From: Acidimicrobiia bacterium
Lineage (GTDB): Bacteria; Actinomycetota; Acidimicrobiia; Spongiisociales; ZC4RG35
Assembly: GCA_035253825.1 (NCBI GenBank)
Contig: DATFBM010000012.1
Location: 150,054 to 214,053, forward strand
Direction of reading: 5' to 3'
Length of the DNA: 64,000 nucleotides
Below are positions 38,238-62,017 of the stretch, in pieces (the stretch's first letter is position 1; the number at the start of each line of letters is the position of its first letter). The translations under genes and the position numbers were made by a program. Under the pieces are notes generated by a model. The model saw nothing but the letters and a program-made list of their open reading frames with translations, was not told the origin of the DNA and did no database searches.

Positions 38238-38335
38238 GTTGGTCTCGAGGCTATTCGTTGCTCAGCTGCCGGGGCGAGCTCTGCGGCCGACAGGTACCGG
38301 GGGCTGTTTGCGCTGCCCAGCCAAAGATCCGATAC

Positions 38336-38349
38336 TACAAACGATTGCG
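38336..38349. promoter_or_regulatory. candidate LacI-type operator S1 (TACAAACGATTGCG)
   Basis: Pseudo-palindrome centred on CG, in the divergent lacI/dehydrogenase intergenic region. It shares the exact 10-mer CAAACGATTG with S4. Confidence 0.45.
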
Positions 38350-38388
38350 GAGCGATCAGAACCGGTGACCGCCAGCGCGAGGGGAGAC

Positions 38389-39324
38389 ATGGCCGAAAAC
38401 AAGTACCCGCACCGGGTGGGCTGGATCGGGGCGGGTCGGATGGGCGCAGCCCTCGTCAATCGCTTGCTGGCCTCGGACGTGGACCTCTGGGTCTACAACC
38501 GAACTCGCTCCAAGGCCGAGCCCTTGGCGGCCAAGGGTGCGAAGGTCGTCGACTCTCCGGCCGACCTCGCCGAACGTGAGATTGTCTTCACCATGGTCGC
38601 CGGTCCCGAAGATGTCCTCGAAGTGACGCTCGGGGCGGAAGGGGTGCTCTCTCGATCCGACCGCCGACCGGAAATCATCGTCGACTCGACGACTATCGAC
38701 GCCACGACCTCACGGACGCTCACCAAGCGGGCCGAAGAACTGGGGACGGCGGTGCTGGCGGCGCCGGTATCGGGCAATCCAAAGGTCGTGAAGTCGGGCC
38801 GCCTCACCTCGGTGGTGTCGGGGCCAAAGGACGCCTATCAAACGGTGCTGCCCTATCTCCAGTGTTTCGGGCGCAAGGTCACCTATGTCGGTGAGGGGGA
38901 CGAAGCCCGCTTGGTCAAGATCTGCCACAACCTGATGCTCGGGGTGGTGACGCAATCGATGGCGGAGATCACCCTTCTCGCCGAGGCGGCCGGAGTGTCG
39001 CGGGCCGACTTCCTTGAGTTTCTCAACGACAGCGTGATGGGCTCCACCTTCACCCGGTACAAGACCCCGGCGTTCGTGAACCTGGACTACACCCCTTCCT
39101 TCACCTGGCATCTGCTTCGCAAGGATTTCGAGTTAGGCCTGGAATCCGGGAGGCTGCTCGGGGTCCCCCTTCCAACCGCCGCCCTCGTGCACCAGATCGT
39201 CATGGACGGAATCGGGCGGGGTTTTGGCGACCAGGACTTCGCCTCGATGCTGGCCCGACACGCCGAAGGCACCGGGATCGACCTCGTCCCGGAGAACAGA
39301 GACATCTCCGACGGACTGAGCTAG
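38389..39324 (+). CDS. NAD(P)-dependent beta-hydroxyacid dehydrogenase (3-hydroxyisobutyrate dehydrogenase family)
   Basis: I use the start MAENKYPHRVGWIGAGRMGAALVNRLL at 38389. 6PGDH-type NAD-binding fold. Confidence 0.8.
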   Translation: MAENKYPHRVGWIGAGRMGAALVNRLLASDVDLWVYNRTRSKAEPLAAKGAKVVDSPADLAEREIVFTMVAGPEDVLEVTLGAEGVLSRSDRRPEIIVDSTTIDATTSRTLTKRAEELGTAVLAAPVSGNPKVVKSGRLTSVVSGPKDAYQTVLPYLQCFGRKVTYVGEGDEARLVKICHNLMLGVVTQSMAEITLLAEAAGVSRADFLEFLNDSVMGSTFTRYKTPAFVNLDYTPSFTWHLLRKDFELGLESGRLLGVPLPTAALVHQIVMDGIGRGFGDQDFASMLARHAEGTGIDLVPENRDISDGLS

Positions 39325-39352
39325 GGAATCCCCCTCGCCGGAATTTCCCGGG

Positions 39353-40252
39353 CTAGAGATGCCGGTCTAGATAGTCGAGGACCCCGGCGATAGCGGCTTC
39401 GGCGACCTCGTTGACTTCGTATTGGCCGTCAGGACCGCGTAATGGGTAGATGTAGCCGTGGAGATCGTGGTCCCAGCTCACCCACTCCACGGGTTTGCCG
39501 GCCTCGGCCAGCAACTCGTAAGAGACCCGGAATATCCCTTGCAGGTGGTCGTCTTCCCTCCCCATAACCAGGAGCGGGGTGTCAATCGTCGAGATCCGTT
39601 CGGCCGCCTTCTTCATATCAATACGCGAGCGCACCTTTTCCGTTTCCACCATCTGCATTTCCTCGATGTTGCGCATACCCGTTTCGGGGGCAACGAAGGC
39701 GGTGTTGTCGGGAGTCAACGCCAAGAACTCGTGCGAGGCGGGTTCGGAAGCAACCGCCGCTTTGATGCCCTGGTATTCGGAGGTGAGCTTGAGGACCATC
39801 TCCCCACCATGGCTCATTCCGATCAATCCCACTCGCTCGGCATCGAAGCGTGGGTCCTTCTTGAGCTGCTCGACGATGGCGATTTCATCCTCGTACTCGA
39901 GAGGTGAGCGATTGAACATGTCACGCCCCTGTCGGGTGTCACGGATCAGGCGACCCCCGTTCTCGTAGCCGAGCTCAACCTCGGTTCGATAACGAATCCA
40001 GGCGCATGCGTACCCCCGCTCGAGGAGACGCTCCATGATGTAGCCACGGTTGGCGACCGCGTTCCTGATCCAGGCCATGCCTCCTCCACCGTTGCCGGAG
40101 GCGAGAAGGACGAGGGGGAAGGGACCCTCGCCCCGAGGGACACGAAGACCGATTGGGGCATAAAGGCCGTCCCAAGTCTCCAAATATCTGAGCTCGACGG
40201 GGACGTCGGAGCCGGCTACTTCTTCGGTGATGCTGATGTTCTCTGGATCCAT
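39353..40252 (-). CDS. alpha/beta hydrolase (S9/dienelactone-hydrolase-like)
   Basis: 299 aa. Nucleophile elbow GMSHGGEM. Distal D and H (WDHDLHGY) are present. Confidence 0.75.
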   Translation of the reverse strand: MDPENISITEEVAGSDVPVELRYLETWDGLYAPIGLRVPRGEGPFPLVLLASGNGGGGMAWIRNAVANRGYIMERLLERGYACAWIRYRTEVELGYENGGRLIRDTRQGRDMFNRSPLEYEDEIAIVEQLKKDPRFDAERVGLIGMSHGGEMVLKLTSEYQGIKAAVASEPASHEFLALTPDNTAFVAPETGMRNIEEMQMVETEKVRSRIDMKKAAERISTIDTPLLVMGREDDHLQGIFRVSYELLAEAGKPVEWVSWDHDLHGYIYPLRGPDGQYEVNEVAEAAIAGVLDYLDRHL

Positions 40253-40255
40253 GAG

Positions 40256-42559
40256 CTATCCCTCTCCGTTGTCCGTCTTCAACCTGCGATCTTTCGATTG
40301 TGCCAGCGCCGTCCACACTGTCGCCGGGCGGAGCGGCATGTCGATATGGGTCACTCCGTAGGGGGCGAGGGCGTCGAGCACGGCATTGACGATCGCCGGG
40401 GGAGCCCCGATGCAGCCCGCCTCCCCCGTCCCCTTCGCCCCGAGGGGGTTGGAGGGGGCCGGGTGCACGAGGCGTTTGGAGCTGATCGGAGGAGCGTCGC
40501 TCGCCCGGGGTAGCGCATAGTCGACCAGGGTCGACGTGAGCAGCTGTCCCTGGTCGGAGTACTGGACTCCCTCGTAAAGGGCCTGCCCGATTCCCTGCAT
40601 TAGGGAACCATGGAGCTGGCCCTCCACGAGCATCGGGTTGAGGACATTGCCGCAATCATCGACGGCCACCATTCGGAGGAGATCCACTTCCCCGGTCTCG
40701 AGGTCCACTTCGACCACGGCGACGTGCACTCCGTATGGGAAGGTCTGGGCGCCGGGCACGAACCATTCCTCGGCCGTGAGGTCGACGCCGCGTTCGTGGG
40801 CCGCCTCGGCAACCCGCGACCAGCTCATCTCGGTTCCTGGCACCCCGGTAATCGAAAAGATTCCATTTGATATCAACACATCGGTCGACGCCGACTCGAG
40901 GAGGTCGGCGACCAACTCGATCGCCTTGTCCCTCACCACGTGGGCAGTTCGCCAGATTGCCGCTCCGCCAATCTGAGCCGACCGGCTGGCGAAGGTGCCG
41001 GTGCCCTGGGCGACTTCGTCCGTGTCGCCCGCCACGTAGCGGACATCCTCCGGGGCGACACCGAGGGCGGCCGCCGCCAGTTGCGCCCAGGCGGTCTCGT
41101 GGCCTTGGCCGGATGAGGCCGAGCCGGTTCGGACGGTAATCGCTCCGGCCCGGTCGACTTCGGTACGACCGTACTCCCCGCCGTCGACGGCGCCCCCGGC
41201 CCGCTCGACGAAGGCGCCAAAGCCCACTCCAATGGGATTGCGCCTCTCGGCGCGACGCTCCTTTTGCTCCTGTCGGAGGCGGTCCAATCCCACCAGGTCG
41301 ATGGCAAGTCGCAGGGCGGCGGCATAGTCGCCAGAGTCGTAGACAGCACCGGTCGGCGTGCGGTGGGGCAGGGCCTCAGACCGTATGAAGTTGGCCAACC
41401 GCACCTCGATGGGATCGAGATTCGCCTCCCGGGCGAAAGCATCCACAGCCCGCTCGATGGCGTACGCGGCCTCGGGGCGTCCGGCGCCTCGGTACGAACC
41501 GGTCGGCGCCGCGTTGGTGACCACCGCGGTGGTCTTCACCGACACGTTCTCGATGTCATACAGGCCGAGGGCGACCAGCCGGGAGAAGCTGGGGATCCCG
41601 GTCCCATTGTGGGGATAGGCACCGACATCGGCCAGGATGTCGATCTCGGCCCGCTCGATACGACCACTCCGTTTCCCCATGAGCTTCACTCGGTGGATCG
41701 ATCCCCGGCCGTGGGTGCCTCCGCTCAGGTGTTCGCGACGTCTTTCCGTCCACAGCACCGGTTGGGCGAGGCGGAGGGCGAGAGCCGCGGTCACAGTGTG
41801 CTCGGGGTAGGTCATTCCCTTCATCCCGAAGGCCCCTCCCACGTCGGGAACGACGATGTGGAGCTTGGTTCGATCCATCGGGATGAGCTGGGAGAGGCGC
41901 GCCTGCACGCCATGAGGTCGCTGGTGGCTGATGTACACCACGAGTCCCCCGTCCTCCTGAGGGATGGCGAGGATGACGAGAGGCTCGATGGGATTGGGAG
42001 CGAGCCGCTGGTTGACAACCTCAAGCTCGACTGCGACCTCGTAATCGCCCGAAGAATCTCCCACGGCGAGGTCAGTCCGGTGAACGACGTTGGTACCCGC
42101 CGCCTCGTGAATGATCACTTCATCGGCAAGACTTGCGCGTGGATCGACGACGGCGGTGATGGGCTCGTAATCCACCCAGACCGCATCGGCGGCGTCGACC
42201 GCCGCCGACTCGGACCTCGCAGCCACCACCGCGATGGGTTCGCCGACATAACGAACCTTCTCGTGGGCGAGGTGGGGCCGGGGAAACGCGAGGGCAGCGG
42301 CGGCAATGCTGTCCCCCGGGATATCAGCAAGATTCATATCCTCGGCGGTAAACACCCCGATCACGTCTGCTCCGAGAACGGCATCGGTGTCGATCCCGGT
42401 GATGAGAGCATGAGCCTCGGTGCTGCGCACGAAGGCGATGTGGATGCTCTCCGGAGGGGCAAGGTCGGCGACGTAACGCCCGGCACCGGTTATGAGGCGA
42501 AGGTCTTCCCGTCGCTTGGATGAGCGAGCCTCGAAATAGGTGATCTCGACCACTCCCAT
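40256..42559 (-). CDS. xanthine dehydrogenase/CO dehydrogenase-family molybdopterin-binding large subunit
   Basis: 767 aa. Ald_Xan_dh N-terminal a/b hammerhead region and a GSYRGAGRPEAAYAIER active-site loop. No FeS or FAD subunit gene is adjacent. Confidence 0.88.
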   Translation of the reverse strand: MGVVEITYFEARSSKRREDLRLITGAGRYVADLAPPESIHIAFVRSTEAHALITGIDTDAVLGADVIGVFTAEDMNLADIPGDSIAAAALAFPRPHLAHEKVRYVGEPIAVVAARSESAAVDAADAVWVDYEPITAVVDPRASLADEVIIHEAAGTNVVHRTDLAVGDSSGDYEVAVELEVVNQRLAPNPIEPLVILAIPQEDGGLVVYISHQRPHGVQARLSQLIPMDRTKLHIVVPDVGGAFGMKGMTYPEHTVTAALALRLAQPVLWTERRREHLSGGTHGRGSIHRVKLMGKRSGRIERAEIDILADVGAYPHNGTGIPSFSRLVALGLYDIENVSVKTTAVVTNAAPTGSYRGAGRPEAAYAIERAVDAFAREANLDPIEVRLANFIRSEALPHRTPTGAVYDSGDYAAALRLAIDLVGLDRLRQEQKERRAERRNPIGVGFGAFVERAGGAVDGGEYGRTEVDRAGAITVRTGSASSGQGHETAWAQLAAAALGVAPEDVRYVAGDTDEVAQGTGTFASRSAQIGGAAIWRTAHVVRDKAIELVADLLESASTDVLISNGIFSITGVPGTEMSWSRVAEAAHERGVDLTAEEWFVPGAQTFPYGVHVAVVEVDLETGEVDLLRMVAVDDCGNVLNPMLVEGQLHGSLMQGIGQALYEGVQYSDQGQLLTSTLVDYALPRASDAPPISSKRLVHPAPSNPLGAKGTGEAGCIGAPPAIVNAVLDALAPYGVTHIDMPLRPATVWTALAQSKDRRLKTDNGEG

Positions 42560-42585
42560 CCTTTATAGCTCTGCCAGCTGCGCCC

Positions 42586-42599
42586 GCACAATCGATTGC
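42586..42599. promoter_or_regulatory. candidate LacI-type operator S2 (CACAATCGATTGCA)
   Basis: Contains the perfect 10-bp palindrome CAATCGATTG. It lies in the divergent region between the Mo-hydroxylase unit and the 10-gene unit. Confidence 0.5.
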
Positions 42600-42649
42600 A
42601 GCGAGGTTAGGATCGCCTCGGGGGCGACGATCAGGCATGAAGGAGAGTC

Positions 42650-43630
42650 ATGGCCGAGAGGGTGAGGGTGGCCAGCATCGGCTTGGGGTGGTGGGGGAAG
42701 GAACTCGCTCGCGGGGCCGTGGCCGCGGGCATGGACCTGGTGGCCTGCTACGCCCGCACTGAAGAGACCAGGAAAGAGTTCGCGACAGCCCTCGGCTGTG
42801 AGCCGGCATCGAGTCTCGAAGACATTCTCACCGACCCCTCGATCGAGGCGGTGCTCATCGCCACATCACACCAAAGCCATCGTCGGTTGGTGGAGGCTGC
42901 GGCCCATGCCGGAAAGCACGTTTTCATCGAGAAGCCTCTGGCGCTGTCGGTCGAAGATGCCCGAGCTTCTCTCAAGGCGGCGGAAGCGGGCGGCATAGTC
43001 CTCCAAGTTGGATTCCAACGACGACGCCATCCTGCTCATCGAGAAATGAAGCGTCTCATCGACGACGGCGAAATCGGCGAGATCGAAACGCTAGAGGCGA
43101 ATCATTCCCTCCCCAATCGCATCGCCGAGGGTGCCTGGCGCTGGGACGAAGAAGAGAGTCCTCTCGGGTCGATGACCTCGCTGGGAATCCATCAGATCGA
43201 GAACTTTCACTACCTTGCGGGCCCTATCGCCAGGGTGGCAGCGGTGTCTCGTCGCGGCCGCACGGTTCCAATCGACGAATCCACCGCCATGGTCTTTGAG
43301 TTCGCCAGCGGAGCTGTAGGCACCCTCGTCTCCTCCTTCTTCACCCCCTGGCGCATCAGCCTCTCCGTCCAGGGGACCGAGGGGGCTGCCTTCGCCGATC
43401 GCGACGGCGCCACTCTCAGCTACCAGCGCCGGGGCGAGTCCGAGGCGACCGAGATCCGACTGAGAGAATTCGACGCCGTCGCCGATCAACTGATCGAATT
43501 CGCCACTTGCATCCGGAGTGGCAGCCACCCGGAGGTGTCCGGAGCCGAGGGTCTGGCTGTTGTCGCCGTGCTGGAGGCGGCCCAGCGCAGCGCAACCAGT
43601 GGGTGCTTCGAAGCGGTAGACGCCGGGTGA
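42650..43630 (+). CDS. Gfo/Idh/MocA-family oxidoreductase, copy 1
   Basis: 326 aa. VRVASIGLGWWGKELA Rossmann start and EKPLAL motif. Confidence 0.85.
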   Translation: MAERVRVASIGLGWWGKELARGAVAAGMDLVACYARTEETRKEFATALGCEPASSLEDILTDPSIEAVLIATSHQSHRRLVEAAAHAGKHVFIEKPLALSVEDARASLKAAEAGGIVLQVGFQRRRHPAHREMKRLIDDGEIGEIETLEANHSLPNRIAEGAWRWDEEESPLGSMTSLGIHQIENFHYLAGPIARVAAVSRRGRTVPIDESTAMVFEFASGAVGTLVSSFFTPWRISLSVQGTEGAAFADRDGATLSYQRRGESEATEIRLREFDAVADQLIEFATCIRSGSHPEVSGAEGLAVVAVLEAAQRSATSGCFEAVDAG

Positions 43631-43638
43631 CGAGGGCG

Positions 43639-44625
43639 ATGGGCCAAAGACGACCCAAGGTGGCGATTCTCGGAACCCGCTTCGGCGGTTTTGATGTCGA
43701 GCGCCAGATTCTCGGCGATGTTGAACTCAGTTCGGGTCACGCCCGAAACCGCGCCGAGATCTTGGAGGTGGCGACGGGAGCAGATGTGATTCTCGCCGGT
43801 GCCGCGCCGGTGTTCGACGCCCAGACGCTGGAGGCATTGCGGGCTCGGGCGATCGTCCGTCTCGGAGTCGGCACCGACACTATCGATCTCGACGCTGCTC
43901 GTCAGCTGGGCATGTGGGTAGCAAACGTACCGGACTACGGGACTGAGGCCGTCGCCTTGCACACGGTGACCCTCGTTCTCGCCTGCCTTCGCCGATTGAC
44001 TCAGGCCGACCGCCAGATGAAGAGTGGCGCGTGGGGCGTGGCCGACTTGCGTCCGCTCCATCTACCGCCGTCGCTCACCGTCGGATTGATCGGATTCGGG
44101 CGGATCGGTCGACGTGTCGCCCAGATGCTGAAGGGTGTCGGGTTTGACCGCTTCTTGGTGGCAGATCCGATACCCGCTGCTCTCAGCGGAGACCTTGCAG
44201 ACCTCAATGTCAAGTTCGTCAAACTACCTGACGTTCTTACCACCGCTGACGTCGTGAGCCTGCACGCTCCCCCGGAAGCCCGCGGCCATCTGCTCGGGTC
44301 TTCTGAATTGAGTCTGATGAAAGAGGGTTCGGTTCTGGTCAACACGGCCCGGGGAGCCTTGGTTGACGCCGTTGCCCTCATTAGCGCACTCGCCCAAGGC
44401 CGGCCGGCGATGGCGGCTCTGGATGTCTTCGAGCACGAACCGCCCGATGTCACGATTTTCGAGGGCATCGGTGATCACTTGATCCTCACACCGCATATGT
44501 CCTGGTACACCGAGGAGAGCGAGCTGGCTCTTCGTCGACAGGGAGCAGCCGAGGCGCTCCGAATTCTCCAATCCCAACCGCCACTAAACGCGGTGGTGAC
44601 GCCTGCCGGGAGCGAAGTTTCGTGA
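43639..44625 (+). CDS. D-isomer-specific 2-hydroxyacid dehydrogenase
   Basis: I use the start MGQRRPKVAILG at 43639. NAD site GLIGFGRIGRRVAQML, plus VNTARGALVD and TPHMSWYT. Confidence 0.85.
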   Translation: MGQRRPKVAILGTRFGGFDVERQILGDVELSSGHARNRAEILEVATGADVILAGAAPVFDAQTLEALRARAIVRLGVGTDTIDLDAARQLGMWVANVPDYGTEAVALHTVTLVLACLRRLTQADRQMKSGAWGVADLRPLHLPPSLTVGLIGFGRIGRRVAQMLKGVGFDRFLVADPIPAALSGDLADLNVKFVKLPDVLTTADVVSLHAPPEARGHLLGSSELSLMKEGSVLVNTARGALVDAVALISALAQGRPAMAALDVFEHEPPDVTIFEGIGDHLILTPHMSWYTEESELALRRQGAAEALRILQSQPPLNAVVTPAGSEVS

Positions 44626-45386
44626 GCCCGACCCTCCGCTCGATCTACGACCTGACCTCGCCCGACGTCCGTGAACTCCTCGACCGCAGCCGACGGGTGG
44701 TGATGCCGTTTGGAAGCATCGAGCAGCACGGCCCCCATCTCCCCTGTGGAACTGACATGATGGCAGCCGACCTGGTGGCGGTGGAGCTCGCCGAGATCCT
44801 CGACGCGATCATCGTCCCCGCCGGCCCCTATGGGGTTACCCCGATTCATGCAGGCCACCCGGGCACTGTCTCGTTACGACGAGACGTCTTCGAGCGGTAT
44901 CTTGCCAACCTCTCTGAAGAGATGGTTGCGATGGGTGCTCGCACCTTCGTCTTTGTCAATTGGCATGAAGGCAACATCGCCTCGCTCGACTCGGTAGCTA
45001 CCGACCTCCAGTCAAAGAACGACGTGCTCGTGGTCACCGCCCACGCCTGTTACACCGCGCAGCGCATCTATGCGCCGGCTGGGGGCGAGCTCACTCACGG
45101 GGGAGGAATAGAGACCCTCGCCGTCCTAGCCCACCAGCCCGAGCTGGCCCGCCTCAACCGGGCTGGGATGCCCACGAGACCAGAAGGAGCCGAAGAGCTC
45201 GATGCCATGCGACGTTCGCGCGAGGTCTACGGCTACATAACTGATATCACCGAGATCGCCGATCAAGGCTGGTATGGAAATCCGGCCTGGGCCGACGAAT
45301 CTGCGGCGGCTGACTTTGCCCAGACCGTCGCTACTGAGATTGCGGTAGCCGTCGAGGAGATCTTGAAAATGAGAGGTCGGTCATGA
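44622..45386 (+). CDS. creatininase-family amidohydrolase
   Basis: 254 aa. PFGSIEQHGPHLPCGTD metal-site motif. GTGA overlap with the upstream gene. Confidence 0.8.
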   Translation: MSPTLRSIYDLTSPDVRELLDRSRRVVMPFGSIEQHGPHLPCGTDMMAADLVAVELAEILDAIIVPAGPYGVTPIHAGHPGTVSLRRDVFERYLANLSEEMVAMGARTFVFVNWHEGNIASLDSVATDLQSKNDVLVVTAHACYTAQRIYAPAGGELTHGGGIETLAVLAHQPELARLNRAGMPTRPEGAEELDAMRRSREVYGYITDITEIADQGWYGNPAWADESAAADFAQTVATEIAVAVEEILKMRGRS

Positions 45387-45769
45387 CCGTCGTCGGACCA
45401 GGGGAACTCGAGTTCCGCGAACTCCCGGGCCGGACGACCTCCGATCCTTTCCGGAATGCGGGGCACGGCGCTTCGACGGTGCGCCAGGTCACGATCGAAT
45501 ACGTCCCTTCCCGGTCTCCTCACCTACATCCCGAAAGTGAGGAGATTGTCTACGTGGTTGCCGGGACCGGCCGGGTTTGGCTCGATGGAGTCTTCCACCC
45601 GGTCGGACCTGGCAGCTGGTATCGAATCCCGGCGCGCACACCCCACGCCACCTTGGCTGATCAGGGCGAGACGATGTCCCTTTGCTGCTTCTTCCCCCAC
45701 GACGACTTTGCCAACAACATCGAAGAGCTCGACCTGATAATCAGCGCCGAGGAGGGAGGAGGGAAGTGA
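45383..45769 (+). CDS. cupin-domain protein
   Basis: 128 aa. SPHLHPESEEIVYVVAGTGRVWLDG and PARTPHA cupin motifs. ATGA overlap. Confidence 0.75.
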   Translation: MTVVGPGELEFRELPGRTTSDPFRNAGHGASTVRQVTIEYVPSRSPHLHPESEEIVYVVAGTGRVWLDGVFHPVGPGSWYRIPARTPHATLADQGETMSLCCFFPHDDFANNIEELDLIISAEEGGGK

Positions 45770-50604: not shown

Positions 50605-52187
50605 CGACGACCACAGATTTCGTCGTTGCCGGTGGAGGCCACAACAGCCTGATCACCGCGGCTTACCTGGCAAAGGCGGGTTACGAGGTGGTGGTCCTCG
50701 ACGCTCGGCGCGAGGTGGGTGGAGGCGCCTCCACCGAGGAGATCCTGCTCCCCGGGTTCTGGTTCGACACCTGCTCCACCGGCCACACCCTGATCCAGGT
50801 GAATCCACTGCTCGCAAGGGACGAGCTGGGATTGCTGTCGGAGTTCGGCCTTCAGTATCTCGATCCTGATCCGGTGGCGCATGTCGTCTTCCCCGATGGC
50901 GAACGGTTCACCATGTGGCTCGACCTCGACCGCACCCTCGACGAGATCGGGAGGTTCTCAAAGAGCGATGCCGCCGCCTACCGACGGATGCTCGAGGAAT
51001 TCGACGCGGTGAAGGGAATCTATGGCGAATACCGCTTCACTCCCATCGGGTATGGCCCTTCCCTCGAGGAAAGACTCGCCAATCAACCGATGGGCACGGT
51101 GTGGATGCGCCGCAACGTCATGTCGGCCTGGGAGGTGATCCGACGGGAATACGAGAGCCGGCACGTGCGCGCCTTCATGGCGTGGATGGCGTTCCAAACG
51201 GCCCAGCCCCTCGAGTCACCTGGCTCCGGCTATCTGGCTTACTCCTTGGTCGGAGGTCGTCAGCGGCGGAGTTGGTCGGTTCCGGTCGACGGTTCTTCGA
51301 GCCTGCCCAGGGCCATCGTCGCGGCTCTCGAGAAAGCGGGCGGCACAGTCATCACCGATACGTTGGTGACCTCCCTGATCGTGGAGGGGGGGCGGTGCGT
51401 CGGGGTGGAGAGCGATGGCGGGACCCAGTATCGGGCTCGTAAGGGCGTGGTCTCCTCGATCCATATCAAGAGGCTGGTCGAGATGGCGCCCGCCGCCGTC
51501 TGGGGTGAAGGCTTTCTCTACGGTGTCGACACCTACGACCCGGGGCTCTCCTCGTTCGCTTCCTACTACGCCACCAGTGAGGCCCCCAGATTTCCGACCG
51601 ACGACGGAGAGATCGAACCCGTCTCGGCGGGACCGGCGCCATGGGTCGAGGACGTCATCGAGTTCGGGCGGGGGTTGCGCGAGGGTCGGCTCCATCGACC
51701 AGGGACATTCCTCCTCTTCGCCACTCCCACCATCATCGACCCCTCTCGCGCCCCGGAGGGAAAGCACACGGTGAAGATCCTCAGCCTCGCTCCCTACGAA
51801 GCTCCCGCCGACCTTGGTGATTGGGAAACGGGGAAGGAAGTTCTGGCGGAGGAGCATCTACGGGTCCTCCAGCAGTGCGCTCCCAACCTGACGGATGAGA
51901 TGATTCTCGCCCGCAAGGCCAAGAGCCCAGTCGACATCGAGGCGGCCAATCCCCACATGTTTCGAGGGACCATCCATGGCGGCGACCGGAGTCTCGCCTA
52001 CGGCGGCGCCCAGCGACCGGTCCCCGGTTGGGCCCAACACCGGATGCCCATCCCCGGCCTTTATCAGACCGGTGCCACCACCCACCCCGGCGGATCGATC
52101 ACAGGAGGCCCGGGAAGGAATGCAGCAATCGTCATCCTGAATGATCTCGGCACCACTATCGAAAAAGTTGTCTCAAACGAACCCTAA
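50601..52187 (+). CDS. FAD-dependent oxidoreductase, phytoene-desaturase/amine-oxidase (CrtI-like) family
   Basis: 528 aa. DFVVAGGGHNSLITAAYLAKAGYEVVVLDAR dinucleotide fold. GTGA overlap. Confidence 0.8.
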   Translation: MTTTTDFVVAGGGHNSLITAAYLAKAGYEVVVLDARREVGGGASTEEILLPGFWFDTCSTGHTLIQVNPLLARDELGLLSEFGLQYLDPDPVAHVVFPDGERFTMWLDLDRTLDEIGRFSKSDAAAYRRMLEEFDAVKGIYGEYRFTPIGYGPSLEERLANQPMGTVWMRRNVMSAWEVIRREYESRHVRAFMAWMAFQTAQPLESPGSGYLAYSLVGGRQRRSWSVPVDGSSSLPRAIVAALEKAGGTVITDTLVTSLIVEGGRCVGVESDGGTQYRARKGVVSSIHIKRLVEMAPAAVWGEGFLYGVDTYDPGLSSFASYYATSEAPRFPTDDGEIEPVSAGPAPWVEDVIEFGRGLREGRLHRPGTFLLFATPTIIDPSRAPEGKHTVKILSLAPYEAPADLGDWETGKEVLAEEHLRVLQQCAPNLTDEMILARKAKSPVDIEAANPHMFRGTIHGGDRSLAYGGAQRPVPGWAQHRMPIPGLYQTGATTHPGGSITGGPGRNAAIVILNDLGTTIEKVVSNEP

Positions 52188-52226
52188 GGCTTCAGCAGGC
52201 GGATTCGGCATGTTTCAGCCTTTGGT

Positions 52227-53378
52227 ATGCGAAAGGAGGTTGGTTTGACGCTCGAGCTGGGCTTTGCCCCCAACGAGGACCCCTTTGTCATCGTCCACGG
52301 TGGCTTCTACCGGCGTTGGTACTCAATGATCGACGACATCTCCGAACTGGAATCAGCCGTCGCTCGCCTCGAGGGAACGACCCAGGACAAGTGGGTCCCG
52401 GTGTGGGAAGAGCTCGGGCGTCGGCACGAAGCGGAGGGGGATCGGCTAGAGGCGACGGGTGATTTCGAAGGATCGAGGCGCTCCTATCTCCAGGCCAAGA
52501 CCTACTACGCCATCGGCCGATTTCCCGGCGAAGTCTCGGAGGTCAAGCGCCGGATCAGCGACGACTGCGCCCGCGCCTATCGGAAGGCCTGCGCTCATCT
52601 CGACCCGCCGGTCGAAATTGTCGAGTTCGAGCATCAGGGCAAGACGATCCGAGCCCATTTTCGATCACCCCATTCCAAAGTCCCGGTTCCTGCGGTCCTC
52701 GTCATGTGCGGCGCCGACGTTTTCAAAGAGGACCGTGGCTGGGCACAAGACATGTGCATCGAAAACGGCCTCGCCGCCCTGGTAATGGATGGTCCCGGGA
52801 CCGGGGAGAACCCATTCCCCTGGGCCCCGGAGTCAGTGAGCGCCTGGGAGGCGGCGGTGGACTATCTCGCCGCTCGCCCCGAGGTGGACGGTGATCGGAT
52901 CGGGGCGTTCGGGATCAGCCGCGGTGGTTACTCAGTCCTGCAGCTGGCCGGCACCGCCCCCGACAAGCTCAAGGCGGTGGTGGCCAGCGCCGGCCATCCC
53001 TTCGGGTATGTCATGGATGACGAGGAGCTCGAGGAGTTCGTGCGGGTCCGCAACGAGCGGGCAGAATGGCGCTTCGGCGCTCCTGAGGATCCTCCCTCGT
53101 TTCCTTCGACCTCTATCGAGCAGGAGCGGGCTGATTTCTCCCGCTGGGCGCTATCCGAACAGGGGATCCTCGACAACATCACGATGCCGGTGTTGATGAT
53201 CAATGGCAAGCTCGACCATCTGGCACCGATCGGGAACATCTACTTCATGCTCGAAACCGGGCCTGCCACCGGCAAGGAAGCTCGCATCTATCCCGACGAT
53301 GGTCATTGTGCTTTCAAACACTTCAATCATTGGGCCCCTGCGACGTTCCGGTGGCTGGCCGAGAAGCTGGGTCGGTAG
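52227..53378 (+). CDS. alpha/beta hydrolase with an N-terminal helical lid (FrsA/DUF1100-like), copy 2
   Basis: 383 aa. Nucleophile elbow FGISRGGY. C-terminal DDGHCAF. Confidence 0.75.
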   Translation: MRKEVGLTLELGFAPNEDPFVIVHGGFYRRWYSMIDDISELESAVARLEGTTQDKWVPVWEELGRRHEAEGDRLEATGDFEGSRRSYLQAKTYYAIGRFPGEVSEVKRRISDDCARAYRKACAHLDPPVEIVEFEHQGKTIRAHFRSPHSKVPVPAVLVMCGADVFKEDRGWAQDMCIENGLAALVMDGPGTGENPFPWAPESVSAWEAAVDYLAARPEVDGDRIGAFGISRGGYSVLQLAGTAPDKLKAVVASAGHPFGYVMDDEELEEFVRVRNERAEWRFGAPEDPPSFPSTSIEQERADFSRWALSEQGILDNITMPVLMINGKLDHLAPIGNIYFMLETGPATGKEARIYPDDGHCAFKHFNHWAPATFRWLAEKLGR

Positions 53379-54819: not shown

Positions 54820-54932
54820 CCATTTGGTGGTCGGCGATTGCTGAAACGCCTCGATTGCACCACCCGAGACGACCTCTGTGAAGTCAAGAATCTGGACTTC
54901 CAGCCGACTGAGCAGGAAGCCACAATGGAGTC

Positions 54933-55622: not shown

Positions 55623-56924
55623 TCAGACGACGATCAACTCGTGGGGGAAGTTCGTCACCTGCTCGTGGCCTCTTTCTGTGAGGACGTAGGTTCGCCCAAA
55701 GAAGATTCCGAGCAACCCATCGGGGGTGATGATTGTCGGTTCGAGCATCGCCACGATCCCCGGGACGAGGTCGAGTTCGTTGTCATTGGCGATGACGTGG
55801 TCCCACATCACATGCGGGGTGTGACTGGTGAAGTCGATGCAATGCAAGAAGAGCGGCCGCGAGTCGTAGCCTTTGTCGCGGAAGAACTGGCTCGCCTTCA
55901 TCACATCGTCCCAGCTGTTGCCCCCGACGAGCTGTTGCGCCATGAGGTCATAGCCAGGGAGGACCACCTCGTCGAAGAACTCTCGGACCCACGACGGCGG
56001 CTCCCCGATAGAGATGGGGCCGCCGATTTGCACCGAGTAACCGTTGTAGCCACAGGCCAGCTCGTTGATGATGATGTCGCCTTTCTCGAGGCGACGGCTC
56101 GAGGGCCAGGGATTGCCGAAGACCATCCCCGGGTTGTCCATTGGCGTCGACCCGATGATGTTGAAGTCCATTTGACCCCCACCGTCTATGACGGCGTGGG
56201 TAGCAGCGGCGGCAAGTTGGTACTCGGTGATCCCGGGGCGGGCGGTGGCGACCATGGCCCCGAAGGCCTGGTCCATCAGCTTCCCGGCCTGGCGGACGCA
56301 CTCGATCTCCTCCGGACTCTTCACATGGACCAGCTCGTGGAAGAAGTCCCCGACTCGCTCCAACTTGGCCTCGGGAAGTCCTTCACGAAGACGCTCCCAC
56401 TCGTCCACCGGAAGGTGATGTCCGTAGACGGGATCGACATGGGAAATACCGACCGTGGCGTCGCCCAGACCCCACTCCTTGATGAGCTCGACGATCACCT
56501 CGCCTGATCGACCCCAGCGCGAGTGGCGAACGTCAGTCAATGGAGTGGCGCGACGCACCGCCTCGCGATGGGCGCCGCCGGGCCCGCAGATCAGAACCGG
56601 CTCCCCTTCCGGAGGCACCACGACATAGGCCGACATCCCGTGCCATTCCCAGTGACCCGAGAGCCACCGCATCCCGCCGCCCCAGCTCCAATGGTTGGGT
56701 CCGCCGGAGGCGATGAGCACGTCGAGGCCGAGTCGCTTCATTTTCGCTCGGGTGGCGGCGAACCGACGTTGGTATTCGGCGTCGGAGAATCGTTCATAGA
56801 CCGCGTCGAAGTACCACGGCGAGTTGGTGACGCCGCCGAAGACCTCTGTGTGCATCTGGCCTACTGCGTTTTTGAAGTCGATGTCACCAGGTCTCATGAG
56901 TCCCTCCGTGTCGTCGTTGATCAA
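55623..56924 (-). CDS. M24-family (creatinase/Xaa-Pro peptidase fold) protein with non-canonical metal-site residues
   Basis: 433 aa. Creatinase_N-like N-terminus and pita-bread C-terminus (GDIIINELACGYNGYSVQIGG ... VAMLEPTII). Confidence 0.75.
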   Translation of the reverse strand: MINDDTEGLMRPGDIDFKNAVGQMHTEVFGGVTNSPWYFDAVYERFSDAEYQRRFAATRAKMKRLGLDVLIASGGPNHWSWGGGMRWLSGHWEWHGMSAYVVVPPEGEPVLICGPGGAHREAVRRATPLTDVRHSRWGRSGEVIVELIKEWGLGDATVGISHVDPVYGHHLPVDEWERLREGLPEAKLERVGDFFHELVHVKSPEEIECVRQAGKLMDQAFGAMVATARPGITEYQLAAAATHAVIDGGGQMDFNIIGSTPMDNPGMVFGNPWPSSRRLEKGDIIINELACGYNGYSVQIGGPISIGEPPSWVREFFDEVVLPGYDLMAQQLVGGNSWDDVMKASQFFRDKGYDSRPLFLHCIDFTSHTPHVMWDHVIANDNELDLVPGIVAMLEPTIITPDGLLGIFFGRTYVLTERGHEQVTNFPHELIVV

Positions 56925-56927
56925 TGA

Positions 56928-57911
56928 TCAGGAAACTGAGTCGAGGAGGCCCAAGCCGTCAAGGTCGGTACGCAACGCCTCCGTTTGATCTTCATTGAGC
57001 GGGATCAACGGCGGCCGCACCGGTCCCTGCGGCAAACCCATCAGAGCGAGCCACGTCTTCAAAGCAGCGATAGGAATCGCCCCCTCGCCGCGAGCCAGCC
57101 AACTGTCCCGCATCCAAAGCTCGAACGCGTCCCGCTCCCGTCCGAGGGTGCCGTGAAGAGCCCAGGCCCCTGCCACGTCTCCGCCATCGGCTTTGCGCGT
57201 GTAGTCGTAGATGGGGCGCTTGGCGGGAGTTTGATACATGGCCAGTGCCGGCGTCGACATGAGCGATTGGAAGCCGTGGTCGAGGTGCAGGCCCAACCAG
57301 TCGGCTTCCGAGGCATCACAAACGACCATCCTGTCACCGGCAAGTTCCTTGACCCGTAGCAGATGCTCTCTCGGCTTCGGATTCTTGATCCCGCACACCG
57401 TGTCGAGGTCGGCGAGCTCGGCGATGAGCTCGGGACTCAAGGCGTACCCGGAGTAAGAGGTGTTGAAGAGGAAGAAGGGGACCGATGACTCTGCGGTCAA
57501 ACGCCGAAACCAGTCACGAACGATTTCGTCGGACGGCTTGATCGGGAAGTAGGGATTTATGGCGATGACGAAATCGGCGCCGACCTCCTCGGCATGCCGA
57601 CTGAGTTGGGCCGCTTCCGAATAGGTGTGATGACCGATGTGCGCCATCACCGGAACCCGCCCGGCGGCGGCATTGACCACCAGTTCGTGAACCTGGGCAC
57701 GCTCTTCGACCGTCAGCGCCCAGAACTCGCCCATCACTCCCCCACAGAAGATGCCCTCGACCGCCAAACCCTCGATGTAGTAGTCCACCGACTTGCGAAG
57801 GATCCCCTCATCGACTGCCCCGGCTGAGGTGAACGGGGTGGGGATGGCGATCCAGAGCCCCTTTACCTTCTCGAAGGCCATCTCTTTCGCCCTGGAAGCC
57901 ATGGCGGTCAC
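56928..57911 (-). CDS. DapA/DHDPS-family lyase (class I aldolase)
   Basis: 327 aa. GIFCGGVMGEFWALTVEER and overall DHDPS/NanA-like layout. Confidence 0.75.
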   Translation of the reverse strand: MTAMASRAKEMAFEKVKGLWIAIPTPFTSAGAVDEGILRKSVDYYIEGLAVEGIFCGGVMGEFWALTVEERAQVHELVVNAAAGRVPVMAHIGHHTYSEAAQLSRHAEEVGADFVIAINPYFPIKPSDEIVRDWFRRLTAESSVPFFLFNTSYSGYALSPELIAELADLDTVCGIKNPKPREHLLRVKELAGDRMVVCDASEADWLGLHLDHGFQSLMSTPALAMYQTPAKRPIYDYTRKADGGDVAGAWALHGTLGRERDAFELWMRDSWLARGEGAIPIAALKTWLALMGLPQGPVRPPLIPLNEDQTEALRTDLDGLGLLDSVS

Positions 57912-57941
57912 CTCCTCGCGCTAACAGCCAGCGACATAGCG

Positions 57942-57955
57942 ACGGTAGCAGCACA
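57942..57955. promoter_or_regulatory. candidate LacI-type operator S3 (CACACACGTTTGCG)
   Basis: CG-centred pseudo-palindrome in the divergent DapA-like/M24 intergenic region. It matches S1 at 11 of 14 positions. Confidence 0.3.
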
Positions 57956-57986
57956 CACGTTTGCGCATTTCGGGGCAATCAGGGAT

Positions 57987-59144
57987 ATGGTCGACCACAT
58001 GGACGACCTCTATCCGAGGTTCAGCAAGGACGAACTGGCCAAGCGGCGCCAGATGATCGTCGAGCTGATGGAGAAGGCCGGCGTATCCCATCTCCTCGTC
58101 TACGGCGCCGAGCGGGTGGGATCGGCTATCCCCTGGCTGACCGAGTGGCCGGTCACCACCGAAGCTGCCCTGCTGTTCACACCGGAGGAGACACCGCGGC
58201 TTTTCGTGCAGCATTACAACCATCTGCCCAATGCCCGGATCATCGCCTCCGACTGCGAAGTGGAATGGGGCGGGCCCTCCACCATCACTCAAATCGAAGA
58301 GCTATTGCTGGCGCGGGTCGGACCTGGTCAGCGGGTCGGAGCATTGGGACCGCTGCGCCATCAAAGTCACTTGAAACTGGCGAGCGCGGTCGGTGAGTTG
58401 GTGGGGTTGGACGCGGAATACCAGCAACTGCGGCTTATCAAGTCGGAAGAGGAAATCGCCCGACTTGAAGTGGCAGCCCGTCTCTCGGATCAGGCGGTCG
58501 CAGCCCTGGTCGCCCAAGTCGAGGTCGGGATGGACGAACGCCAGTTAGCGGCGATCGTCGAGTCTGCCTATTTGTCCGAGGGGGCCACCAACCACATCCA
58601 CTACTTCGCCGTCACCTCGATGTCCGATCCCGACAAGTGCGTGCCGTCGCAGTTCCAGTCGACCCGGAAGTTGCAATCGGGTGACATTCTCTTCTGCGAG
58701 ATCAGCGCTGCCTACTGGGGATACGCCGCCCAGGTCTTGCGAACCTTCACTATTGCCGCCGACCCCACGCCGCTCTTCGTTGAGCTTCACCGCGCCGCCG
58801 ATGCCGCCTTCGATGCCATCGCCGCTGTCATTCGTCCGGGCGCCCATGCTTCCGAGCTCGTGGCGGCATCAGCGGTGATTGAAGAGATGGGGTTCACCAT
58901 CTATGACGACCTGGTTCATGGCTATGGCGGCGGCTATCTGCCGCCGGTCCTCGGGGCCAAGAGTCGCCCCAATTTGCCGATACCCGATCTGACTCTGAAA
59001 GAGGGGATGGCGTTGGTCATCCAACCCAATGTGATTACCACCGACGAGCGGGCCGGGGTCCAAACGGGACATCTCGTGGCAGTTACCCATGGCGGGCATC
59101 GCTCGCTTCATAACTTCCCTAGGGGACTGGGCCGGATCGCCTGA
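57987..59144 (+). CDS. M24-family (creatinase/Xaa-Pro peptidase fold) protein with non-canonical metal-site residues
   Basis: 385 aa. GDILFCEISAAYWGYAAQVLRTF ... LVHGYGGGY ... MALVIQPNVIT. Confidence 0.75.
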   Translation: MVDHMDDLYPRFSKDELAKRRQMIVELMEKAGVSHLLVYGAERVGSAIPWLTEWPVTTEAALLFTPEETPRLFVQHYNHLPNARIIASDCEVEWGGPSTITQIEELLLARVGPGQRVGALGPLRHQSHLKLASAVGELVGLDAEYQQLRLIKSEEEIARLEVAARLSDQAVAALVAQVEVGMDERQLAAIVESAYLSEGATNHIHYFAVTSMSDPDKCVPSQFQSTRKLQSGDILFCEISAAYWGYAAQVLRTFTIAADPTPLFVELHRAADAAFDAIAAVIRPGAHASELVAASAVIEEMGFTIYDDLVHGYGGGYLPPVLGAKSRPNLPIPDLTLKEGMALVIQPNVITTDERAGVQTGHLVAVTHGGHRSLHNFPRGLGRIA

Positions 59145-59208
59145 TTGGGTCCCATCCGGCGTGGGGATCGGTTGCAGAGGACGGCGCCCCTGGTTAGCGT
59201 GCAAACGA

Positions 59209-59222
59209 TTGGGCTGGCGATC
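59209..59222. promoter_or_regulatory. candidate LacI-type operator S4 (TGCAAACGATTGGG)
   Basis: Lies 24 nt upstream of the substrate-binding-protein start. The left half TGCAAACG is a perfect LacI/GalR half-site. It shares CAAACGATTG with S1. Confidence 0.45.
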
Positions 59223-59245
59223 GAGCCTGCTCGTCTGGAGACAAT

Positions 59246-60955: not shown

Positions 60956-61004
60956 GATAAATATCTTCAGATGAGCGACGGAGGGGGGAAAGGAGAACTG
61001 AAGC

Positions 61005-62015: not shown

Positions 62016-62017
62016 CC

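Follow-up and report, generated by a model that had tools for sequence, protein, structure and literature searches.

A Predicted Local Regulon of a LacI-Family Regulator and a CG-Centered 14-bp Palindrome in Uncultured Acidimicrobiia

The locus described here encodes a single LacI-family regulator beside a series of hydrolase, oxidoreductase, and transport genes, which raises the question of whether one repressor links these accessory genes into a regulon. An earlier note on this DNA had proposed as much, based on four similar 14-mers (S1–S4) in its intergenic regions. We analyzed the whole 64,000-nucleotide stretch (the window) together with nine genome loci and about 20 metagenome contigs of related uncultured soil Acidimicrobiia, whose regulator orthologs range from 96% down to 49% identity. 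Motif location, enrichment, footprint, and the invariant helix-turn-helix (HTH) and hinge of the regulator all support the proposal at the level of sequence. The locus is probably a local regulon, in which a LacI-family repressor and the CG-centered 14-bp palindrome YRCAAWCGWTTGYR would control seven units with about 20 genes (Table 1). To our knowledge, no LacI regulon has been characterized in uncultured Acidimicrobiia.

Table 1. Genes and putative operator sites of the locus; positions refer to the window and scores to the weight matrix described in the text.
Feature	Position	Strand	Score (bits)	Basis and remarks
LacI-family regulator gene (lacI), 341 aa	37212..38237	-		Pfam PF00356, PF00532, PF13377
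Half-site GTTTGCG, lacI leader	38306..38312			37 bp from S1 center; alignment block of L002-L005, L088, and the window
Putative operator S1, TACAAACGATTGCG	38336-38349		21.1	Earlier note: same position
HIBADH/tartronate-semialdehyde-reductase-like dehydrogenase	38389..39324	+		Pfam NAD_binding_2, NAD_binding_11
Alpha/beta hydrolase	39353-40252	-		Pfam; unit 39353..42559 with the Mo-hydroxylase
Mo-hydroxylase large subunit	40256-42559	-		Pfam; leftward from S2
Putative operator S2, CACAATCGATTGCA	42587-42600		23.0	Earlier note: 42586-42599
Ten-gene unit	42650..53378	+		Pfam; rightward from S2. Genes 1-5: Gfo/Idh/MocA, D-2-hydroxyacid dehydrogenase, creatininase-family amidohydrolase, cupin, Gfo/Idh/MocA. 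Genes 6-10: FrsA-like hydrolase, CocE/NonD (S15) hydrolase, alpha/beta hydrolase, CrtI-like FAD oxidoreductase, FrsA-like hydrolase
DapA-like (DHDPS family) and M24 peptidase-like genes	55623..57911	-		Pfam; leftward from S3
Putative operator S3, CACACACGTTTGCG	57952-57965		12.1	Earlier note: 57942-57955
Second M24 peptidase-like gene	57987..59144	+		Pfam; rightward from S3
Putative operator S4, TGCAAACGATTGGG	59200-59213		18.6	Earlier note: 59209-59222
Dpp/Opp-type ABC importer: family-5 substrate-binding protein and two permeases	59261..62947	+		Pfam SBP_bac_5, BPD_transp_1
Candidate second operator near S4, GAAAATCGTTTGCG	59268-59281		15.0	

The Regulator and Its Candidate Operators

According to tblastn and Pfam, the regulator gene is the sole LacI-family gene in the window, as had been claimed. 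Its product contains an N-terminal HTH (PF00356, residues 7–53, 45.8 bits against a cut-off of 27) and a C-terminal type I periplasmic-binding-protein-like effector domain (PF13377, 115 bits; PF00532, 97 bits), and it aligns over its full length to CcpA, RbsR, and PurR structures in a PDB sequence search. All NCBIfam equivalog models considered (RbsR, CytR, PurR, CcpA, GalR/S, GntR, UriR) score far below their cut-offs, the best being the RbsR-type NF047341 (183.6 bits against 382), and no NCBIfam model or solved structure points to an effector. The HTH (TLKDVAREAGVHISTASRALN) and the hinge (HPLARGLRTNRT, an ARxL(K/R) motif) are constant in orthologs down to 49% overall identity, as is the CG-centered motif. 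In the LacI/GalR family, the hinge helix carries a leucine lever for insertion at the central operator CpG, a role that this hinge may share. A search for further contigs encoding the regulator gave a single 1.4-kb contig without gene context.

The four 14-mers were recovered, and their sequences and gene contexts agree exactly with the earlier description; the position given for S1 was correct, and those of S2, S3, and S4 were misplaced (Table 1). The exact 10-mer CAAACGATTG is common to S1 and S4, and S2 contains the perfect palindrome CAATCGATTG. S3 is deviant in that position 5 is C or T rather than A. We described the motif with a weight matrix (PWM) trained solely on sites from related loci of other genomes, the window being excluded. 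Its consensus, YRCAAWCGWTTGYR, is an even palindrome with a central CG and invariant C3 and G12. The generic LacI/GalR consensus to which the sites had been compared agrees in shape, but the conserved part is CAAWCGWTTG and the outer TG/CA is only weakly kept. Site centers lie approximately 29–105 bp upstream of called start codons. The candidate second site near S4 is located 68 bp downstream of it, center to center, just past the start codon of the binding-protein gene.

Several other matches were rejected. The earlier note had also listed a half-site at 54852–54859; the sequence CGATTGCA is indeed there, but the best PWM score of the region is 1.8 bits, so it does not qualify as an operator. 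It is part of a local direct repeat within a BBE/HxlR insertion, and the BBE/HxlR gene pair, being missing from every related locus, was not counted among the regulon members. A match at 38951 (CGCAATCGATGGCG, 15.8 bits) is within the HIBADH-like coding sequence and is unconserved in orthologs, and one at 47879 (9.8 bits) is within the C-terminal coding sequence of FrsA1 and missing at the homologous place in L005; both were treated as chance. A second CocE/NonD hydrolase gene beside lacI (S15a) has no site in its upstream region (35436–35486; best score -9 bits) and was left out of the regulon. The idea of a foreign "island" finds no sign in base composition, GC content being 0.62–0.66 throughout.

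Motif Occurrence against Chance

A genome-wide PWM scan with a test for promoter enrichment had been suggested as a check; applied to the window and related loci, such a scan bears the proposal out: the strong sites lie in promoter regions and outside coding DNA, do not occur in the remaining 38 kb of the window, and are enriched in orthologous loci. The placement of the motif is non-random. CAAWCGWTTG has three exact matches in 64 kb (0.24 expected), all of them intergenic and in promoter regions, a count reached in 0 of 100 shuffles. At 18 bits or more, the PWM matches S2, S1, and S4, against 0.055 matches expected per 64 kb; at 14 bits or more there are five matches against 0.54 expected; and at 10 bits or more there are six, every one between 38.3 and 59.3 kb. 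With 64 kb of genome covered, bases 1–38000 contain zero matches of at least 10 bits. Among the window and 33 related loci, all 45 sites of at least 16 bits fall outside coding sequence, which makes up about 80% of the DNA; three of the 45 were flagged as coding, all in over-extended ORF calls. Sites of this strength number 42 in 0.32 Mb of orthologous loci versus 7 in 1.2 Mb of loci with unrelated LacI proteins, a roughly 23-fold difference in density.

It is extremely improbable that the recurrence reflects chance, or that the motif is a promoter or repeat element of a general kind with no connection to LacI proteins. Within the window only, a blind ranking of every 10-bp palindrome is not decisive, with CAATCGATTG and CAAACGTTTG tying at the top with one chance palindrome, and one shared 10-mer in about 700 bp of intergenic DNA is unremarkable by itself. 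Such an explanation is nevertheless at odds with the observed versus expected counts and with the non-coding position of all strong sites. In addition, the competing palindrome GTCTCGAGAC occurs at chance level, the sites match no Rfam family or repeat element, and conservation across loci down to 49% regulator identity already contradicts it.

Conservation across Related Loci

Phylogenetic footprinting, the other sequence-based check suggested, likewise favors a regulon: the motif is conserved before orthologous genes in spite of locus rearrangements. In alignments it forms a conserved island amid diverged intergenic DNA and is found upstream of the lacI ortholog, the HIBADH-like gene, the Gfo/Mo-hydroxylase divergon, the DapA-like gene, and the ABC binding-protein gene. 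The motif is also linked to the regulator, with a site upstream of the lacI ortholog, or of the operon containing it, in nine of nine genome loci.

Equivalents of S1 occur in all nine genome loci and in L088; the 14-mer is identical in L002–L007 and L088 and varies in L008–L010, and the surrounding spacers have diverged. The HIBADH-like gene is the most constant predicted target of the regulon. It adjoins the lacI ortholog in eight of the nine genome loci, and a strong site (22–24 bits) stands in front of it in seven of these eight and in L088, the exception being L010 with merely an 11.3-bit match. The half-site in the lacI leader, which has a near-complete site as its counterpart in L088, is a possible auxiliary contact of the regulator.

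S2 has equivalents in all three loci that retain the divergon (L002, L004, and, as a tandem duplicate, L003), and these also keep the order of the Mo-hydroxylase and hydrolase genes. The ten-gene unit, whose reading frames overlap or abut with a widest gap of 39 bp, is syntenic in L002–L005. Sub-blocks of it have their own sites elsewhere (2HADH in L003–L005, S15b in L092 and L095, AmOx in L087). Several relatives carry abutting tandem operators 13–14 bp apart, and L009 has an independent pair of sites 68 bp apart.

S3 equivalents were found in four of four loci with the DapA-like gene (L084, L085, L086, L100), and the block GCTAGCAGCACATACGTTTGCGCG is kept in four other loci with diverged flanks. 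Orthologs of the second M24 gene adjoin the lacI ortholog in L082 and L087–L089 and lie behind a site in L100; L090 has a 79% homolog in another context, without a site and without lacI. S4 equivalents are present in all five loci with a close ortholog of the binding protein (L083, L085, L086, L097, L100). The 59268 site occurs at equal spacing in L083, L086, L097, and L100, and is broken in L085.

The S3 score is not significant on its own, as 1.3 such matches are expected per 64 kb; we accepted the site on account of where it lies and of its retention in orthologous loci. The regulon could be limited to S1, S2, and S4, with S3 conserved as a promoter component and the 59268 site for encoding the N-terminus MGRKS(F/I)A. 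We regard this narrower version as rather unlikely, though less so than the other alternatives. The conserved S3 block is longer than the motif (GCTAGCAG...), and since the 59268 site is within coding sequence, its conservation may be partly protein-driven. On the other hand, the central CG and a perfect right half-site of S3 are retained in five loci with diverged flanks, and S3 is placed like S2 relative to a -10-like hexamer. Apart from the broken copy, the 59268 site varies only by the A/T allowed by the motif at position 9, which changes a residue (F/I), and the independent pair in L009 has the same spacing.

A separate matter is which protein binds the sites. Related genomes contain LacI paralogs (39–40% identity) that have a related HTH (HPSTVSRALN) and similar CAAACGnTTG-type sites (CAAACG(C/G)TTG) and that lie near the ortholog (L006, L007) or near target genes (L099). 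Some sites might therefore be shared with, or belong to, a paralog encoded outside the window. Some or all of them could then be real operators of that paralog, leaving just S1, and possibly S2, to the neighboring regulator. Such an arrangement would fit S3 and the L003–L005 AGCAAACGTTTGCG sites, which have the flavor of CAAACGTTTG rather than CAATCGATTG. Nevertheless, we consider it improbable: S1, S2, and S4 have one core, with an identical 10-mer in S1 and S4; A and T at positions 6 and 9 both occur in sites directly upstream of the regulator ortholog itself; and targets relocate yet stay beside the ortholog (M24b in L082 and L087–L089; FrsA2/AmOx/Gfo2 in L008).

Promoter Placement and Proposed Mechanism

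No sigma-70-type promoters turned up when the operator regions were scanned for promoter consensus sequences, so our placement of promoters is based solely on conserved TANNNT hexamers, one of which each operator overlaps or directly adjoins. S1 overlaps ATACTA/ATAATA (38332–37), which may serve as a -10 readable in either direction. S2 is flanked by TAGGAT (42608–42613), the presumed -10 of the rightward ten-gene unit, and by TATAAA (complement of 42563–42568). S3 is 4 nt from TACCGT/TAGCGT (complement of 57942–57947), possibly the -10 of the DapA-like gene, whose true start is likely the ATG at 57902, 9 nt after GAGGAG. In the five loci with S4 equivalents, the site is conserved together with TTGACA-17 nt-TAGCGT. 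The window counterpart is TTGCAG (59172–77) and TAGCGT (59195–59200), and S4 would overlap both the -10 and the transcription start of the promoter for the ABC transporter.

In the regulon that we propose, the LacI-family protein would bind YRCAAWCGWTTGYR as a dimer. S1 would control lacI itself (autoregulation) and the divergent HIBADH-like gene; S2, the Mo-hydroxylase/hydrolase pair and the divergent ten-gene unit; S3, the DapA-like/M24 pair and the divergent M24 gene; and S4, with a possible second site downstream, the Dpp-type importer. Given the position of the operators on or beside the hexamers, bound repressor would block access of RNA polymerase to at least one of the two divergent promoters. 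We predict repression rather than activation, and induction rather than co-repression: a small molecule in the C-terminal sugar-binding-type domain, probably the substrate after import or one of its first degradation products, would release the repressor.

Substrate of the Putative Pathway

Gene content weakly suggests a peptide-, amide-, or sugar-amino-acid-like substrate over a plain sugar. The suggestive components are the Dpp-type importer, two M24 prolidase/creatinase-like enzymes, CocE/NonD hydrolases, a creatininase-family amidohydrolase, and DHDPS-family lyases, joined in relatives by an ornithine-cyclodeaminase-family enzyme, RidA, an aldehyde dehydrogenase, and Liv-type binding proteins. 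A bolder reading, which we consider less likely than not, is that the effector is something other than a simple carbohydrate and that the roughly 20 genes form an import and breakdown pathway for a compound of the peptide, cyclic-amide, or sugar-amino-acid-conjugate (Amadori/opine-like) type. The solved structures closest to the ABC binding protein, at low similarity, are of proteins that bind dipeptides or glutathione. An NCBIfam scan of the island proteins gave no function-specific match, with only a generic CocE/NonD family model passing its cut-off; the flanking 62951–63964 gene, which is not an island member, matches the NCBIfam threonine synthase model above its cut-off. PDB sequence searches with the regulator and the HIBADH-like, DapA-like, creatininase-like, S15, substrate-binding, and M24 proteins gave generic family matches only. 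Literature searches yielded nothing relevant on the core 10-mer and no usable confirmation on LacI-regulated opine or Amadori systems.

Comparison with Known LacI-Family Systems

The majority of LacI-family motifs are CG-centered even palindromes, over 75% of the sites occur 30–140 bp ahead of start codons, autoregulation applies to 72% of the regulators, and 93% of local regulons have at most 20 genes, most having 2–7 (Ravcheev et al. 2014, PMC4052901). The present locus resembles the local LacI regulons of RegPrecise and that study in motif form, upstream site distance, predicted autoregulation, the clustering of the regulator with catabolic and ABC-transport genes, and divergent operons on one operator. 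It differs in size, about 20 genes in seven units being the top of the reported range, and in content: oxidoreductases and hydrolases of peptidase-, amidohydrolase-, and esterase-like types take the place of the glycoside hydrolases, sugar kinases, and sugar transporters of typical LacI regulons.

The motif shares the half-site GCAAAC-G and the central CpG with Escherichia coli PurR and RbsR operators (GCAAACGTTTGC / GCGAAACGTTTCGC type), and the regulator has the ARxL(K/R) hinge; some sites in related loci (AGCAAACGTTTGCG in L003–L005) have the sequence of a PurR-box core. In contrast to PurR and RbsR systems, the preferred core is CAATCGATTG, the targets are unrelated to purine or ribose metabolism, and the regulator scores far below the NCBIfam cut-offs (RbsR 183.6 versus 382, PurR 152.5 versus 501, CytR 182.2 versus 436). 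There is also a likeness to Firmicutes CcpA and its cre sites (TGNAANCGNTTNCA), as the generic consensus invoked earlier is essentially cre and CcpA structures (3oqm, 1rzr) are among the best PDB sequence matches of the regulator. However, the regulator scores 152.8 against the ccpA model cut-off of 442, its sites are confined to one gene neighborhood unlike global cre sites, and it is C3 and G12 that are invariant, with the outer TG/CA weakly conserved.

We view the regulon as real but conventional; its mechanism would be textbook LacI-type repression and does not change general understanding. What it provides is a testable regulatory map, with one regulator, five candidate operators, and seven units of about 20 function-unassigned genes, for an abundant uncultured class of soil actinobacteria. 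Genes with uninformative homology annotations would be tied into one co-regulated pathway, narrowing the search for its substrate, and the repressor with its 14-bp operator may offer a simple handle for ligand screening or biosensor construction.

Candidate operator sites in the window

Direct reading of the sequence finds the four 14-mers of the earlier note (S1–S4) exactly as quoted and in the gene contexts described, and Pfam scans bear out its gene map. Its position for S1 is correct; those for S2, S3, and S4 were off by one, ten, and nine bases, respectively, and are corrected in the table.

Candidate operators and genes in the accessory half of the window (window coordinates)
Feature	Position	Strand	Sequence or gene order	Basis
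S1 operator	38336-38349		TACAAACGATTGCG	direct sequence reading
S2 operator	42587-42600		CACAATCGATTGCA	direct sequence reading
S3 operator	57952-57965		CACACACGTTTGCG	direct sequence reading
S4 operator	59200-59213		TGCAAACGATTGGG	direct sequence reading
Half-site	54852-54859		CGATTGCA	direct sequence reading
LacI-family regulator	37212-38237	-		Pfam
HIBADH-like dehydrogenase	38389-39324	+		Pfam
Alpha/beta hydrolase	39353-40252	-		Pfam
Mo-hydroxylase large subunit	40256-42559	-		Pfam
Ten-gene unit	42650-53378	+	Gfo/Idh/MocA, D-2-hydroxyacid dehydrogenase, creatininase family, cupin, Gfo/Idh/MocA, FrsA-like, CocE/NonD, alpha/beta hydrolase, CrtI-like FAD enzyme, FrsA-like	Pfam
BBE-type FAD oxidase	53323-54819	-		Pfam
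HxlR regulator	54933-55622	+		Pfam
M24 peptidase-like protein	55623-56924	-		Pfam
DapA-like protein	56928-57911	-		Pfam
Second M24 peptidase-like protein	57987-59144	+		Pfam
Family-5 binding protein and two permeases	59261-62947	+		Pfam

The observed recurrence of the operator is real. The core CAAWCGWTTG has three matches in the window (S1, S2, and S4) against 0.24 expected, a count reached in 0 of 100 shuffles; with one mismatch allowed there are nine, S3 included, against 4.5 expected. A symmetrised weight matrix, built from 26 sites that all come from other genomes and so avoiding circularity, scores S2 at 23.0 bits, S1 at 21.1, and S4 at 18.6. Its other matches are at 38951 (15.8 bits), 59268 (15.0 bits), and S3 (12.1 bits), and none of at least 10 bits falls in bases 1–38000. 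A first-order Markov sequence of 64 kb is expected to yield 0.055 matches at ≥18 bits, 0.54 at ≥14 bits, and 1.3 at the level of S3. When all 1024 ten-base palindromes were scanned blindly across the 3.9 kb of non-coding DNA in the window, CAATCGATTG and CAAACGTTTG came out joint top, tied with GTCTCGAGAC, a palindrome no more frequent than chance predicts. S1, S2, and S4 are therefore convincing from the window alone, and S3 is on that basis a candidate.

Within the matrix, positions C3-A4-A5 and T10-T11-G12 are invariant. The proposed match to the generic LacI/GalR operator holds for the cre-like shape, but the outer TG/CA is weakly kept; the core resembles the PurR/RbsR half-site GCAAAC-G.

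Conservation in related loci

A genome scan with the regulator identified nine Acidimicrobiia MAG loci (L002–L010; 96, 90, 88, 89, 70, 69, 60, 51, and 49% identity), the closest from the soil MAG Acidimicrobiia SMAG_U3938; MAGs with orthologues include DATBKE01, CAWBOD01, CAWKEI01, and JANMST01. A metagenome scan with the M24 protein 57987–59144 added 24 contigs (L082–L105; homologues of 51–82% identity). Window proteins were placed on these loci by tblastn, followed by a matrix scan. This phylogenetic footprinting, the test that the earlier note had proposed, supports the interpretation of the sites as a putative LacI-type regulon under one repressor.

The S1 14-mer is identical upstream of the lacI orthologue in L002–L007 and L088. 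L009 and L010 have TACAATCGATTGCA/G at that place, and in L008, where the regulator is the last gene of a HIBADH–aldehyde dehydrogenase–lacI operon, a site lies ahead of the whole operon. S2 is retained between the Gfo and Mo-hydroxylase genes in L002 and L004 and duplicated in L003. S3 is retained ahead of the DapA-like gene in L084, L085, L086, and L100, with the sequence CACATACGTTTGCG (or its complement), and S4 ahead of the gene for the binding protein in L083, L085, L086, L097, and L100; four of these last five loci have a second site 68 bp downstream, matching window 59268–59281. In alignments the motif is a conserved island amid diverged spacers, most clearly for S1 (ten loci).

Rearranged loci have extra sites ahead of the genes for a 2-hydroxyacid dehydrogenase (L003–L005), CocE/NonD (L092, L095), an FAD oxidoreductase (L087), and a paralogue of the substrate-binding protein (L092, L099), and at the FrsA-like/M24 divergon (L100). 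At the more distant orthologue loci, the genes with a site upstream encode Liv-type binding proteins, EamA transporters, OsmC, and an OYE flavoenzyme. No gene accompanies the regulator more constantly than the HIBADH-like one, its neighbour in 8 of 9 genome loci. Neither site nor regulator was found in L090, a 21-kb contig of unrelated context with a 79% identical M24 homologue.

Sites of ≥16 bits number 45 in the 384 kb made up by the window and the 33 related loci, of which about 80% is coding sequence; 42 of the sites are outside called genes and the remaining three in ORF calls over-extended upstream of the true start; even with those three taken as coding, the binomial probability of such placement is about 4e-26. 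Orthologous loci have 42 sites of this strength in 0.32 Mb, and 71 loci of unrelated LacI genes (about 30–37% identity) have seven in 1.2 Mb, several of them immediately ahead of the LacI gene of the locus itself (L020, L029).

Two full operators abut at a 13–14 bp offset in L003 (4833–4859), L102 (2933–2960), L105 (80–107), and the comparison locus L020 (5439–5466), and two dimers bound there would occupy different helix faces; the window, unlike several related loci, has no tandem pair. In L004, additional half-sites form a series next to the S1 equivalent (about 9830–9881). Two transporter operons of different type, Dpp in the window (59200–59281) and Liv in L009 (16889–16970), are each preceded by a pair of sites exactly 68 bp apart centre to centre. 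Looping between paired sites is doubtful because the regulator lacks an obvious C-terminal tetramerisation helix.

Elements outside the proposed regulon

The half-site at 54852–54859, previously taken as related, is not an operator and is instead one copy of a local direct repeat, CGATTGC-N10-CGATTGC (54835–54858), in the BBE/HxlR spacer, where the best matrix score is 1.8 bits. The repeat is possibly an HxlR site. The divergent BBE and HxlR genes (53323–55622) are missing from every related locus and look like a separately regulated insertion; they interrupt an otherwise conserved FrsA-like/M24 neighbourhood. We also excluded the matches at 38951 and 47879, which are inside coding sequence and not conserved, and the CocE/NonD gene 35487–37259, which lacks an upstream site. 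Gene order in the accessory half is fluid among relatives, but base composition is even across the window, with no foreign sign.

Regulator and proposed mechanism

The 341-aa regulator combines a LacI HTH with a type-I periplasmic-binding-protein fold (Pfam) and can be aligned over its full length with structures of CcpA, RbsR, and PurR. A tblastn search of the window with it returned no second LacI gene, in agreement with the earlier note. It reaches no NCBIfam equivalog cut-off (the best, RbsR-type, is 183.6 against 382) and is far below those of the CytR, UriR, GntR, CcpA, and PurR models; by these sequence models it is therefore an unnamed LacI-family member. The operator motif stays unchanged, and in parallel the recognition region (TLKDVAREAGVHISTASRALN) and hinge (HPLARGLRTNRT) hardly vary among orthologues, even those with 49% overall identity; both segments differ in the paralogues of L006, L007, and L099.

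A strict sigma-70 scan of the operator regions returned no promoters, which is unsurprising for 63% G+C actinobacterial DNA, and we therefore infer the promoter positions. Each operator lies on or beside a TANNNT-form hexamer that is conserved together with it. S1 overlaps ATACTA/ATAATA (38332–38337), which for the dehydrogenase promoter would resemble GATAAT and for the lacI promoter TATTAT. S2 lies 7 nt upstream of TAGGAT (42608–42613) and 18 nt from TATAAA (complement of 42563–42568), predicted to serve the ten-gene and Mo-hydroxylase units, respectively. S3 is 4 nt from TACCGT (complement of 57942–57947), probably serving the DapA-like gene, and S4 starts on the last base of TAGCGT (59195–59200), 17 nt after TTGCAG (59172–59177), where relatives have TTGACA. 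Because of these positions, a bound dimer would be expected to block RNA polymerase. With three of the four operators each shared by two divergent promoters, the regulon would have seven units and about 20 genes.

The ligand may release the repressor, as is normal in the LacI family, or may act as a co-repressor, as it does for PurR.

Gene content and possible substrate

Glycoside hydrolases, sugar kinases, and binding proteins of sugar type are absent from the window targets. These comprise a Dpp-type importer (nearest solved relatives bind dipeptides or glutathione), two M24 enzymes (nearest solved relatives are Xaa-Pro peptidases), a CocE/NonD hydrolase (a second, 35487–37259, lies beside lacI), FrsA-like and further alpha/beta hydrolases, a creatininase-family amidohydrolase, a DHDPS-family lyase, and several dehydrogenases. 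Further genes in relatives encode a second DHDPS-family protein, an ornithine-cyclodeaminase-family protein, RidA, and an aldehyde dehydrogenase. These genes and the constancy of the HIBADH-like partner lead us to hypothesize a nitrogen-containing substrate, peptide-, amide-, or sugar-amino-acid-like; we keep this as a hypothesis because NCBIfam models and solved structures gave no specific substrate assignment for the regulon proteins. The effector, too, may well be something other than a simple sugar.

Several details of these genes are of note. No 2Fe-2S or FAD subunit genes adjoin the Mo-hydroxylase large subunit (nearest model glyceraldehyde dehydrogenase alpha, at 599 bits where the cut-off is 790). 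Its conserved TATAAA lies 9 nt ahead of a conserved GTG (42553); this spacing suggests that the mRNA has almost no leader and that translation begins six bases inside the called ATG. For the CocE/NonD gene, the most likely start is GTG 47921, not ATG 47876; this GTG overlaps the preceding stop as GTGA (ATGA in L005). The likely DapA-like start is ATG 57902, 9 nt after GAGGAG, not GTG 57911. In L084–L086 (e.g. L086 4219–6295), the S3 equivalent is separated from the M24 gene by another gene of the DHDPS family and one of the ornithine cyclodeaminase/mu-crystallin family; neither is present in the window, and S3 thus directly faces the M24 gene there.

The importer has no ATPase genes before the convergent threonine-synthase-like gene (62951–63964); in L092, a 2.6-kb gap past the permeases could hold them. 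The binding-protein leader (59214–59260) is conserved well past the operator (GGGCTGCCGATCGAGCCCGTTCG...GGAGACA...TGAGGAGG), with a possible GGGCT/AGCCC stem and no Rfam match. The called 3' ends of lacI and the convergent CocE/NonD gene overlap by 48 bp (37212–37259), a pair retained in L002–L005. The sole RNA gene detected in the window is tRNA-Thr (CGT; 16194–16267, minus strand).

Relation to known LacI-family systems

LacI-family motifs are mostly even palindromes centred on CG, over 75% of sites are located 30–140 bp upstream of start codons, 72% of regulators are autoregulated, and regulon size is at most 20 genes in 93% of cases and mostly 2–7 (Ravcheev et al. 2014, PMC4052901). The window regulon fits all four traits, with its size at the large end, but its content is unusual, with peptidase-, amidohydrolase-, and oxidoreductase-type targets rather than sugar genes. 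The system is a new, uncharacterised example of a very well known kind, and it joins about 20 genes with poor annotation, from an uncultured soil lineage, in a single unit that can be tested.
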